DNA of 63,726 nt, the filler included, from an uncultured Acidimicrobiia bacterium (GTDB lineage: Bacteria > Actinomycetota > Acidimicrobiia > Spongiisociales > JAOTWH01), in the NCBI GenBank assembly GCA_964347285.1. It is 7 parts of 4 records of this genome, joined end to end, with 100 filler letters (N's around TTAATTAATTAA, not from the genome) between each part and the next. Parts side by side here need not be neighbours in the genome. Positions count along the whole stretch, not along the records: positions 22,161 to 33,234 come from CAYFYE010000002.1; 6 more parts are not named here. The stretch is one strand, 5' to 3'. The notes under the pieces are model-generated. The model was not told the DNA's origin. It did no database searches and saw only the letters and a list, made by a program, of their open reading frames with translations. The position numbers and the translations under genes are program-made. Shown piece after piece: positions 25,613 to 28,208 of this stretch. Within the stretch, counting starts at the first letter, position 1; the number at the start of each line of letters is the position of its first letter.

Positions 25613-25902
25613 TTTCGGTCCTCGGGCTTGCGGCGGAACATGCCCAGCATGCGGTCGGTGACCAAGAAGCCGCCGACGACGTTGATCGTTGCGGTGACGA
25701 CCGCCAAGAACGCCAGCACCGTGGCGAGCCCGCCGGCTCCGAATCCGGCGGCGGTGAGCGCTCCGACGATCGTGATGCCAGAAATGGCGTTGGCTCCCGA
25801 CATCAGCGGGGTGTGCAGGGTCGGAGGCACCTTGGTGATGACCTCGAACCCGACGAACGTGGCCAACACGAACACGGTGATGCCGACGATCAGCGGGCTC
25901 AT
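25609..25902 (-). CDS. pntAB: NAD(P) transhydrogenase alpha subunit, membrane part (split alpha-2)
   Basis: 'VPPTLHTPLMSGANAISG', 'INVVGGFLVTDRML'. Confidence 0.95.
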   Translation of the reverse strand: MSPLIVGITVFVLATFVGFEVITKVPPTLHTPLMSGANAISGITIVGALTAAGFGAGGLATVLAFLAVVTATINVVGGFLVTDRMLGMFRRKPEDRK

Positions 25903-27023
25903 CCGGCCTCCTCGGAGCCCGCCGCTCGTCTTGCCTCGGGATGACGGATCTCACCGGCATGGGCGACACAGGCGCCATCGACGATCTCGTCGTCGAAGTC
26001 GAGCTCGATCTCGCCCTCCGCGGTGAGGTGGCGCAGCAGCTCGAGGACGTTGCGCCCGTACATGTCCGAGGCATCGGAGGCGACCCGGCTCGGCAGGTCC
26101 TCGGGCCCGAGGATCGAGACACCGGCATGGTCCACCTCTGCTCCGGGCCGGGTGAGCGCACAATTGCCTCCGGCGGGAGCCGCCACATCGACGATGACCG
26201 TTCCCGGCCGCATCCGCTCGACCATTCCGGCGTCGATCAGCAAGGGCGCCGGTCGGCCCGGGATCAGAGCCGTGGTGATGACGACGTCCGACCTGGCCAC
26301 CTCCGGAGTGAGCGCCTCGAGCTGGCGCCGTTGGGCGTCTTCGGCCACTTCTCGGGCATAGCCGGCCGCGGTGGCCGCCTCCGCGTCAACTGGGGCCTCG
26401 ACGAAGGAGGCCCCGAGGCTTTCCACCTGCTCGCGGGCCTCAGGGCGGATGTCGTACGCGGAGACGATCGCACCGAGGCGGCGGGCTGTGGCAACGGCCT
26501 GGAGGCCAGCCACGCCGGTCCCGAGCACGAGGACCCGGGAGGGGCGGATGGTTCCGGCGGCAGTCGTCAGCATGGGGAAGAAGCGAGGGGACGCCGCAGC
26601 TGCGGCCAGAACGGCGGCGTAGCCGGCGGCGGTGGCCTGCGAGGAAAGCGCGTCCATGCTCTGGGCGAGCGTGGTGCGCGGCATCGCCTCGAAGGCGAAC
26701 GCGGTGAGCTTGCGCTCGGCGAGGGTTCGCACCACGGCTCCATCGGTGAACGGGGCCAGGAAGCCGATGACGGTGGCTCCTTCCCCGGCCCGGGCCAGAT
26801 GATCACCGGGGGGAGGGCCCACGATGGCGATCACCTCTGCGGACCAGGGATCGCCGATCTCGGCGCCGTTGGCCCGAAAGGCCTCGTCGGGAAAGCCGGC
26901 CGCCCGACCGGCATCCGGCTCGACCGTCACGGTCGCCAGCCCGGCCATCGACTTGGCGATGGTCGGGGTGACCGCCACGCGGCGCTCGGCTGGGTCAGGT
27001 TCCTTGGGGATTCCGACTCGCAT
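25899..27023 (-). CDS. pntAA: NAD(P) transhydrogenase alpha subunit, NAD-binding part (alpha-1)
   Basis: 'MRVGIPKE', 'QSMDALSSQ', 'GTGVAGLQA', 'TALIPGRPAP', 'GGNC'. Confidence 0.94.
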   Translation of the reverse strand: MRVGIPKEPDPAERRVAVTPTIAKSMAGLATVTVEPDAGRAAGFPDEAFRANGAEIGDPWSAEVIAIVGPPPGDHLARAGEGATVIGFLAPFTDGAVVRTLAERKLTAFAFEAMPRTTLAQSMDALSSQATAAGYAAVLAAAAASPRFFPMLTTAAGTIRPSRVLVLGTGVAGLQAVATARRLGAIVSAYDIRPEAREQVESLGASFVEAPVDAEAATAAGYAREVAEDAQRRQLEALTPEVARSDVVITTALIPGRPAPLLIDAGMVERMRPGTVIVDVAAPAGGNCALTRPGAEVDHAGVSILGPEDLPSRVASDASDMYGRNVLELLRHLTAEGEIELDFDDEIVDGACVAHAGEIRHPEARRAAGSEEAG

Positions 27024-27084
27024 CAGCGCGAATCTACGAGGCGACCGGCGGATTCCCAAGCCCGGACGGCCCGGTCCCGGGTAC

Positions 27085-27241
27085 GAGAATGGGGCCGGGA
27101 GCGCAGGGGGAAACGCTCCCGGCCCCGTGTGCTGGAGAACTCTGCTCCAGCGAGCCATGTGGGCCCGAGAGGGAACCGGGCGCCCACCTCGGCTCGTTGC
27201 CGCCAGAGGGGGCGGGAGGGTGTTGCCCCTCTAGGCTGGGC
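27085..27241 (-). ncRNA. Candidate structured small RNA with C-rich loops (6C/cuckoo-like architecture)
   Basis: Four consecutive hairpins; three loops read AACACCCUCCC, UUCCCUCU and UUUCCCCCUG on the minus strand; ECF-type promoter immediately upstream; ends approximate. Confidence 0.55.
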
Positions 27242-27247
27242 AGCCAC

Positions 27248-27284
27248 TTGGACCCGGTCTCCACCGACGGAGTTCTGTGTTTTT
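27248..27284 (-). promoter_or_regulatory. ECF-type promoter for candidate sRNA
   Basis: AAAA-N4-AGAACT-N17-GTCCAA. Confidence 0.6.
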
Positions 27285-27306
27285 CGACTCGAGAGGGCCG
27301 TGGCCC

Positions 27307-27343
27307 AAAACTGGAGAACCGCACGAGGCGGGGACGTGTCTAA
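27307..27343 (+). promoter_or_regulatory. ECF-type autoregulatory promoter of the sigma gene
   Basis: AAAA-N4-AGAACC-N17-GTCTAA, six nt before ATG 27350. Confidence 0.65.
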
Positions 27344-27349
27344 TTGGAC

Positions 27350-27885
27350 ATGGGGGGAATGGACGATCGATCTGACTTCCAGCTCGTTCGAGCAGCGAGC
27401 GAGGATCTGGGAGCTTTCGGCGAGTTGGTACGACGCCATCAGGACTTCGTCTTTGGGGCAGCGATGCGAGTGGTGAGGAACCCGGTCGTGGCCGAAGAAG
27501 TGGCCCAGGAAACCTTCATCAGAGCCTTTCGCGCTTCGGCCGACTTCCGCGGTGAAGCCCAGGTGCGTTCCTGGCTCTACCGGATCGCTACAACCTCGCT
27601 CTCAACGTGGTGAGCCGGCGCCGCAATCCGACCGAAGACCTCCCCGATCGGCCCGTTCTGGTCGGGCCGGAGAGCGCAGCCGTCGCCTCGGCCTTGCGCC
27701 GGGATCTCCACGAGGCCATCGCCGAGCTTCCCGACAACCTGCGGCGCCCGCTCGAGCTGCGGGAGCTGGAACACCGCAGCTACGACGAGATTGCCGAGGA
27801 GCTGGGCGTCCCGCTGAACACCGTTCGGACCAGGATTCTGCGAGGTCGACGGGCACTGGGCGAGAAGCTGGAGGCGTGGCGATGA
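27350..27885 (+). CDS. ECF sigma-70 factor, interrupted by a 1-bp frameshift near 27591
   Basis: Region 2 'AEEVAQETFIRAF...SWLYRIAT' continues in another frame as 'NLALN...SYDEIAEELGVPLNTVRTRILRGR' (region 4). Confidence 0.85.
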
Positions 27886-28208
27886 CCGTGGAGAGCGCTC
27901 CGCGCAGCTGCGGCGTCGCCGACGAGACACTGTTCGAGTTCTCGCTCGGAGACGTGCCGGTCGATCTGGCCGGGGTGGCCATCCCCGAGCCGGACATCGA
28001 CGCACACGTGAGCGGGTGCGACGAGTGCCAGGCCTTCCTCGCCGAGCTGTGGGAGGGGTCCCTCGACAAGGATCTCTCCGAGCCGGTTCTGAAGATCATC
28101 GAGCTCGAGCTGTTCCTGATCGAGCTGGCCAAGCTGGGAGGGGGTATTCTCGCTTCCTTCGCCGAGGCGCTCCTCGCCTACGCGCTGGAACCCGAAGCGG
28201 AGGACTAG
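27882..28208 (+). CDS. Putative zinc-binding anti-sigma factor
   Basis: HxxxCxxC ('HVSGCDEC') plus upstream Cys; ATGA overlap with sigma stop. Confidence 0.75.
   Translation: MTVESAPRSCGVADETLFEFSLGDVPVDLAGVAIPEPDIDAHVSGCDECQAFLAELWEGSLDKDLSEPVLKIIELELFLIELAKLGGGILASFAEALLAYALEPEAED

Follow-up and report, generated by a model that had tools for sequence, protein, structure and literature searches.

Cuckoo RNAs such as CcsR1 and ar14 are stress-induced small RNAs (sRNAs) that display anti-Shine–Dalgarno-like loops of the CCUCC type, and a mechanism acting through C-rich loops is also known for sX13. For the Acidimicrobiia, which are abundant and mostly uncultured Actinomycetota, full-text literature searching turned up no described sRNA and no paper on a divergent extracytoplasmic function (ECF) sigma gene with a C-rich sRNA. 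The 6C RNA is described as two stem-loops, each with at least six cytosines in the loop (PMC8388888). In the published account of GsrN, an EcfG-regulated sRNA of Caulobacter, a conserved C-rich loop binds the target and pairs with a G-tract of katG, and the homologs are located near sigma genes (PMC5869019). Here we examined a DNA stretch of 63,726 nt, referred to as the window, which consists of seven joined parts of the metagenome-assembled genome (MAG) GCA_964347285.1 of an uncultured Acidimicrobiia bacterium, and within it a candidate sRNA of ~155 nt on the minus strand (27085..27241 in window coordinates). The element lies within the 326-nt intergenic region (27024-27349) between pntAA and an ECF sigma gene, forms four hairpins (H1-H4), occurs once in the genome and lies outside Rfam; the promoter motif placed directly before it has only one other exact copy in the genome, and the arrangement recurs at orthologous loci. 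We consider it probable, on balance, that the element is a trans-acting minus-strand sRNA of ~155 nt with C-rich loops that depends on the ECF sigma factor.

A minus-strand sRNA of this size had been proposed in an initial annotation that did not see its promoter; the strand, the discrete size and the C-rich loops are all supported by our analysis, to which a promoter can now be added. ECF promoters generally combine an AAC-containing -35 box with a -10 box containing GTC or CGT. A divergent promoter of this type (P_div; minus strand, 27248..27276) comprises AGAAC at 27276-27272, an 18-nt spacer and GTCCAA at 27253-27248. Its -10 box ends 6 nt before H1, its predicted start is at ~27241, and the minus strand reads AGAAC-N18-GTCCAA-gtggct followed by GCCCAGCC, the first bases of H1. 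The sigma gene has an ECF-type promoter of its own (P_sig; plus strand, 27315..27343), in which AGAAC (27315-27319) and GTCTAA (27338-27343) stand in the context AGAAC-N18-GTCTAA-ttggac-ATG and which is separated by 6 nt from the sigma ATG at 27350. Exactly two matches to AGAAC-N18-GTC[CT]AA exist on both strands of the 2.63-Mb genome, and both are found here, back-to-back on opposite strands; the expectation by chance under a mononucleotide model is ~0.7 per genome (about 1e-7 per position), and the count is post hoc because the motif was derived from the sigma-proximal copy. Allowing spacers of 17-19 nt brings in one more site, and GAAC-N18-GTCNAA gives 12 sites in the genome. Chance is a very unlikely explanation for a second exact copy that is correctly oriented and lies 6 nt from the base of the fold. 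In a metagenome contig that is ~93% alike, both P_sig boxes are kept and the sole change within 27315-27343 is at spacer position 27324 (among the metagenome contigs, X3 spans 27289 onward only, with 27289-27495 covered at ~93% identity, and the X2 contigs end at 27021). A T-run at 27275-27286 was considered as a plus-strand terminator but is more readily accounted for by the A/T-rich sequence that separates the two -35 boxes. Looser matches of the form GAAC-N18-GTCCAA are present elsewhere in the genome (G000), at C31:19660 on the plus strand and at C3:53783 and C22:6035 on the minus strand; these are possible further members of the regulon, and the C31 site precedes a Shine–Dalgarno (SD) motif and an ATG.

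The four contiguous hairpins of the initial annotation, with three C-rich loops on the minus strand and a perfect 13-bp stem followed by AUUCUC, are all reproduced in the minimum free energy (MFE) fold of that strand. H1 (27199..27241) has the loop AACACCCUCCC, which includes CCUCC, and H2 (27152..27195) ends in the tip CCGG-UUCCCUCU-CGG. H3 (27131..27151) has 7 bp and a loop, CAGAGUU, that is not C-rich. H4 (27091-27126, with a tail to 27085), the presumed terminator, combines the loop UUUCCCCCUG with a stem of 13 perfect G/C-rich pairs and one U.G pair (-35.3 kcal/mol) and the tail AUUCUC. The C-rich segments CCCUCCC, CCCUCU and CCCCCU in the loops of H1, H2 and H4, respectively, are predicted to be single-stranded. 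The MFE of the minus strand is -94.2 kcal/mol, compared with -68.4 +/- 4.1 kcal/mol for 200 dinucleotide shuffles, none of which was as good (z -6.25).

A fold is also predicted for the plus strand (-91.4 kcal/mol; z -2.9; 2 of 200 shuffles as good), and as each strand has three G.U pairs the strand is not decided by folding alone. An RNA read from the plus strand would be either an extended sigma-gene leader or a CsrB-like protein sponge displaying the G-rich loops GGGAGGG, AGAGGGAA and CAGGGGGAAA, and could start from TAGGCT (27232-27237, plus); within 27000-27380, TANNNT boxes occur only here and as the TAGATT box of pntAA. We regard this possibility as highly improbable. A transcript from TAGGCT would leave out nearly all of the hairpins because the box is near the element's downstream edge, and the sigma gene has its own conserved promoter adjoining its start. 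CsrA (PF02599) was not found in the genome, in a search with positive controls in three named genomes, which argues against a GGA-loop sponge, and in related loci the G.U pairs and U-tail terminators are on the strand of the divergent promoter. The minus strand and ECF dependence are favoured because P_div lies 6 nt from H1, the motif is conserved and a hairpin RNA recurs behind it.

Another origin, raised in the initial annotation as a potential objection, is that these intergenic G+C-rich palindromes are a dispersed repeat, a repetitive extragenic palindromic (REP) sequence or a miniature mobile element, and a foreign 251-nt contig does contain H4 alone. The element is, however, present in a single copy in this 90%-complete MAG according to both BLAST (11- and 9-nt words) and its own covariance model (R1), and no copies were detected in 60 + 150 related genomes. 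The single-copy argument is not absolute because MAGs lose repeats, but we find a repeat barely conceivable.

Comparison with Rfam is consistent with the absence of this element from the database. The initial annotation had pointed to 6C and to the cuckoo RNAs; a scan of the whole window with Rfam 15 gave no match at gathering score, and no match to 6C or to the cuckoo RNAs (CcsR1, RF02791; ar14, RF02344) was obtained for 26950-27420 at E <= 10. Membership of 6C (RF01066) was rejected since the element is below the gathering score of 47 bits and its longest loop C-run is 5 rather than at least 6, while membership of the cuckoo RNAs was rejected since no covariance model matched at this threshold and CCUCCUCCC is absent. 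The non-microRNA matches at E <= 10 are all sub-threshold and all on the minus strand, comprising Scr3202 (RF02833; 23.1 bits against a gathering score of 52, E 0.41) and sX13 (RF02232; 18.5 against 50 bits), of neither of which the element is a member, together with Pxr (20.6 against 80 bits) and the eukaryotic long non-coding RNA MEG3_2 (12.4 against 60 bits). We count Scr3202 and sX13 as the sole near-misses, and that these are C-rich-loop sRNAs is favourable to our interpretation. An ECF-type promoter at the proper distance 5' of the RNA is what would be expected of an ECF-sigma-dependent sRNA, and P_div, judged by its sequence, is such a promoter. The same genome holds a second candidate C-rich-loop sRNA outside the window (G000:C9, ~25930-26050; locus L245, ~330-450), which has a TACTAT -10 box, two hairpins with the loops UCCUCCCCCCUG and UCUCCCCCCUG and a classical U-tail terminator; its Rfam scores are likewise sub-threshold (ar14 32.8/58.8, Scr3202 28.8/52 and 6C 28.3/47 bits), and it resembles 6C more than the element at 27085-27241 does.

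Support for the divergent promoter comes from orthologous sigma loci. Using the region-4 fragment of the sigma gene as a query, clear orthologs (43-65% identity) were identified in ~28 of 150 order-level genomes. The sequence (G/A)GAAC-N17-19-GTC(T/C/A)AA is conserved upstream of these orthologs and constitutes a phylogenetic footprint of P_sig, while 27 of the 29 loci derived from the 150 genomes also have a divergent copy back-to-back with it (consensus GAACT...GTGTCCAA). A second set was obtained by a profile search of genome contigs with an alignment of 14 orthologs (A6), which returned 80 loci. The 56 Acidimicrobiia loci analysed were L165-L221 minus L214 (no upstream sequence), all with at least 47% identity; L222-L244 were excluded because their identity did not exceed 41%, because they came from other phyla or because the sequence was a fragment. 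By regular expression, the sigma-proximal motif was found at 38 of these 56 loci and the divergent motif at 49, counts that are not additive with those of the 29-locus set because species overlap.

The divergent promoter is commonly followed by a structured RNA. For the 47 of 49 divergent-promoter loci with at least 100 nt downstream, we predicted the MFE structure of the 210 nt that follow. Hairpin loops containing CCCC, CCUCC or CCCUC were observed at 29 of 47 loci in the sense orientation, whereas the reverse complements of these stretches gave 5 and random stretches from the same loci gave 7 of 94; a stricter motif (CCCCC or CCCUC[A/U]C) was found 27 times in sense and never in the reverse complement. 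At 12 loci an open reading frame (ORF) begins within ~70 nt of the promoter instead, and six loci were unclassified by their loops. An RNA was detected in five of these six by a covariance model (R3) of one of the types described below, bringing the number of loci with a non-coding hairpin RNA, the majority with C-rich loops, to 34 of 47. Four of the ORFs were tested and encode proteins with a mechanosensitive (MS) channel transmembrane helix, MS_channel_2nd or LapA domain (L209-L220, family f12 and others). A Pyr_redox_2 gene was also observed downstream in L166 and L205, and the MS-channel, LapA-domain and Pyr_redox_2 genes may hint at the composition of the sigma regulon.

At least four RNA types are distinguishable in this slot in the Acidimicrobiia. 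The hairpin-B type has a variable first hairpin, often with ACCAUUCC, and then a long hairpin whose stem of 14-15 bp carries the conserved 21-nt loop GUCUGUCUUAACCCCCUCACG. Twelve sequences of this type (alignment A9, model R3) have 18 pairs, of which 8 are compensatory, and many G.U pairs; it is found in L170-L173, L178, L181, L190, L192-L194, L202, L204, L221 and others, and R3 recovers nine non-seed loci at 22-86 bits. The type in genus g16 is ~200 nt long with the invariant C-rich loops CUGCCCCCCUG and AGGCCCCCCCAA and, in four of five cases, a classical U-tail terminator; an analysis of five genomes (alignments A2 and A4, model R2) gave 53 pairs with 9 compensatory (L136, L137, L139, L140 and L142; also L174 and L185-L188), and R2 recovers five of the eight g16 genomes and nothing else among the 150 genomes. 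Genus g36 has one 18-bp hairpin with the loop UUUGCCCCCCUG. In family f1, to which the window genome belongs (L131, L165 and L166), the first hairpin has the loop CCUCCCAU, the second bears CCGG-CCCCCCUCA-CGG at its tip, with stems wholly different between genomes, and the terminal hairpin is G/C-rich. No Rfam match was obtained for these RNA types at E <= 0.1 in 7 loci nor at E <= 0.01 in 15 loci. An arrangement that is class-wide in the Acidimicrobiia and not yet described is most likely, judging from these comparisons.

The window RNA shares with these types the same slot, the divergent promoter, the strand, the size (110-230 nt among the types), C-rich loops and a G/C-rich terminal hairpin, and its position between a divergent ECF promoter and a leaderless-type pntAA is shared with the hairpin-B loci. 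Its first helix begins 6 nt after the -10 box, compared with 5-6 nt in L131 and L165. Its H1 loop has CCUCC where the family f1 relatives have CCUCCCAU, its second-hairpin tip has UUCCCUCU in place of CCCCCCUCA within the same CCGG and CGG, and its AUUCU-type tail resembles AUUCU-containing tails in L170 (AUUCUUCC) and L202 (AAUUCUGC). The window RNA differs in lacking both the widespread loop GUCUGUCUUAACCCCCUCACG and the ACCAUUCC motif.

Several results weigh against our interpretation, and these concern the kinship of the sequence, the association with pntAA and the state of the sigma gene, in addition to the post hoc character of the motif count. Smith-Waterman comparison with three same-family RNAs gave no significant similarity (z +0.3, -1.0 and -0.2). 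R2 scores only 12-13 bits on the element with partial, hairpin-only matches, and R3 has no match to it at E <= 1, the best in the genome being elsewhere (17.8 bits, E 2.2). The element's own model R1 found five matches in the 150 order genomes at E 0.05-0.7, all within ORFs and judged to be due to chance. The 251-nt contig mentioned above (X4, record 19), of low depth and from an unrelated sediment metagenome, matches H4 alone (27091-27125) with one mismatch, a loop 4 nt shorter and flanks unlike those of the window. DNA similarity searches in 60 relatives gave short chance matches only, and alignment of the window RNA with two same-family RNAs (MAFFT/RNAalifold) brought the loops together but produced no usable consensus structure. 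A pntAA-based scan of metagenome contigs detected one contig at 100% (L043, with an identical intergenic region), the next best being 61%. The covariation that the initial annotation had envisaged for orthologous sigma loci was found in part: the promoters recur and the related RNAs covary, but for the window RNA itself no relative close enough to reveal covariation was found. As there is no statistical link by sequence or model, and the kinship consists of position, promoter and architecture, we call the window RNA positionally equivalent to its counterparts; membership of any one of the four types is not demonstrated, while in view of its context it is probably a diverged ortholog of them.

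The association with pntAA admits a different explanation. pntAA encodes NAD(P) transhydrogenase alpha part 1 (minus strand, 25899..27023; 374 aa, ATG at 27023; Pfam AlaDh_PNT_N and AlaDh_PNT_C), and the element is on the pntAA strand, its predicted start lying 218 nt from the ATG. The hairpins may instead serve the pntAA operon as a structured 5' leader or attenuator under ECF control, providing stress-induced pntAA expression on top of a leaderless housekeeping promoter. Acting in cis, such a leader would attenuate transcription at H4, influence processing or stability, or offer a binding site, and the short RNA would be a by-product or have a dual function. We view this as a possible explanation, but one that we hold tentatively and lean away from. 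It is possible because half of the RNA-bearing loci (17 of 34) have pntAA 3' of the RNA and in the same orientation, with 97-203 nt between the predicted start and the ATG in 15 of these and 441 and 552 nt in the other two. This distribution shows that the pairing recurs beyond this genome and fits a leader as well as a conserved gene order. Moreover, the H4 tail AUUCUCGU is a weak U/C tail with four U in eight positions, under the scan threshold, and a consensus terminator scan calls no site in 26800-27600; with no U-tract at H4 and no terminator called, read-through into pntAA is possible. Elsewhere, the same promoter appears to drive protein genes directly, as for the MS-channel-type and LapA-domain genes noted above, and in L166 and L205 Pyr_redox_2 lies downstream.

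Other evidence is difficult to reconcile with a leader. pntAA keeps its own -10 box, TAGATT (minus strand, 27031..27036), located 7 nt 5' of the ATG as in promoters of leaderless type; the initial annotation had argued from this box that the element need not be the pntAA leader, and the argument is strengthened by its conservation. A TANNNT box is present 7-10 nt 5' of the start at 20 of the 30 pntAA loci compared and an SD-like motif at only 3, such that a leaderless pntAA is plausible and pntAA appears to be leaderless across the order (L027 is among the 30 loci, but no conclusion depends on it). A box similar to TAGCGT precedes the pntAA start in each of the 17 loci. Since pntAA is without an SD, a leadered mRNA would have no ribosome-binding site. 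An additional strong terminator hairpin is located directly before the pntAA -10 box, and hence between it and the RNA, in L192 and L221, and L177 has a U-tail after the RNA and before pntAA; in some lineages, the RNA is thus predicted to terminate independently ahead of pntAA. The other 17 of the 34 loci have the RNA but no pntAA behind it, among them those of family f11, for which 13 genomes yielded no pntAA, and a hairpin of -35 kcal/mol would be odd in a leader unless it terminates transcription.

Several further observations were made on pntAA and on terminators. Among the regions 5' of pntAA at the 30 most similar loci, no comparable element was found in same-family genomes, which have other genes there, while in G001 and G003 a single contig carries the sigma gene and pntAA at a distance of 3.5-4.5 kb. 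In the window genome we counted 88 distinct perfect hairpins with at least 11 bp. Several strong ones have similarly short U/C tails (...CCTCTTC-tctctg and ...CCCCGTTC-tcgtggg), and others have full U-tails (e.g. C9:26011). The ORF at 25899-27158 (419 aa) was ruled out as an upstream extension of pntAA as the homologs begin with MRVGIP. An ATG at 27158 (minus strand, inside H2) is in frame with pntAA and would add 45 residues if read-through transcripts were translated; with neither an SD nor homolog support, it is probably meaningless.

The state of the sigma gene raises the question of whether the system is still active. This gene (plus strand, 27359..27885) has matches to Pfam Sigma70_r2 and Sigma70_r4_2 in two frames, with region 2 at 27350/27359-27613 and region 4 at 27592-27885, and a one-base frameshift just 3' of 27590 (within 27585-27600). 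The start at 27359 agrees with the orthologs, which are intact and 173-185 aa long. The related metagenome contig (~93% alike) has one additional base after 27590 and keeps the frame, but contigs of the probable source run have no indel at this site at ~8x depth, so that the MAG and an independent set of contigs from that run agree on the frameshift. An intact ortholog was sought elsewhere in the MAG and not found; the divergent promoter may therefore currently be silent. The element could thus be a relic, with a broken sigma gene, silent promoters and hairpins that are a decaying or neutral remnant or merely G+C-rich palindromes at the DNA level. The presence of the frameshift in two assemblies of the same data, the failure to find a homolog of the exact sequence (60 + 150 genomes and metagenome contigs) and the difference of the loops from the family-wide CCCCCUCA motif fit with decay. 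We nonetheless judge decay to be decidedly unlikely, as all four stems are intact, including the perfect 13-bp stem, with a z of -6.25, both promoter copies match the consensus exactly and strand-asymmetric C-runs are retained in three of four loops. A single-base frameshift at ~8x depth could, furthermore, be recent or restricted to the strain. Downstream of the sigma gene, a small ORF (plus strand, 27882..28208) without a Pfam or NCBIfam match encodes a putative anti-sigma factor with the motif H-x3-C-x2-C (HVSGCDEC). The part of the window with the element is G000:C2 (offset 22160), a contig that extends far past the portion present in the window; 13 runs of 44 N are located within 20931-45184.

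For the trans-acting sRNA that we favour, we infer the following mechanism of transcription and action. The RNA would be transcribed from P_div (27276-27248), back-to-back with an autoregulated promoter of the ECF sigma/anti-sigma operon, starting at ~27241 at the foot of H1 and mostly stopping at H4 (27126-27091, tail AUUCUC). Release of the sigma factor would lead to production of the RNA alongside more sigma factor, and the exposed C-rich loops may then pair with G-rich, SD-like stretches of target mRNAs and alter their translation or stability, as suggested by analogy with GsrN and 6C. One speculative target is the sigma factor itself. The predicted sigma mRNA starts with ~AUGGGGGGAAUGG (27350-27362), in which GGGGGAA is complementary to UUCCCCC of the H4 loop over 7 bp; pairing of the G6 tract at the mRNA 5' end (27352-27357) with this loop would make feedback on the RNA's own sigma factor possible.

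A bolder proposal, which we consider unlikely as a whole, is that throughout the class one ECF sigma factor with a Cys/His anti-sigma factor is hard-wired, by a back-to-back promoter pair that induces both together, to a fast-evolving riboregulator that acts both in trans on G-rich ribosome-binding sites and as a cis gate on pntAA. If so, a stress sigma response would be tied to NADPH supply by an RNA lying between the sigma gene and the genes of a proton-translocating transhydrogenase, with only the C-rich, anti-SD-like loops held constant. The recurrence of pntAA, Pyr_redox_2 and MS-channel neighbours suggests, at the level of gene order, that the sigma response may be linked to redox or envelope physiology. 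More generally, promoter and gene order may reveal an sRNA slot whose RNA body has itself diverged past recognition. If our interpretation is correct, this locus would provide a sequence-defined promoter motif for one ECF sigma group and at least four unannotated RNA types for Rfam-style curation.

With respect to described systems, the element has similarities to several C-rich-loop sRNAs but is not equivalent to any of them. Scr3202 of Streptomyces and sX13 of Xanthomonas are also hairpin sRNAs with C-rich loops, but belong to unrelated taxa and genomic contexts, while the cuckoo RNAs differ in that the element has no tandem repetition of one hairpin unit. Like 6C, the element occurs in Actinomycetota and has multiple C-rich-loop hairpins that presumably pair with G-rich mRNA sites; unlike 6C, it has four hairpins rather than two and C-runs of 3+3, 3 and 5. 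GsrN belongs to another phylum (Alphaproteobacteria as opposed to Actinomycetota) and is associated with another ECF group. In comparison with GsrN, the element has no sequence similarity, three C-rich loops, a strict back-to-back promoter pair and no PhyR/NepR partner switch that we could see. The two are nevertheless alike, as far as the account of GsrN extends, in being sRNAs with a C-rich loop under the control, predicted in the case of the element, of an ECF-family sigma factor. The locus described here may represent an independent actinobacterial parallel to the alphaproteobacterial EcfG-GsrN system.

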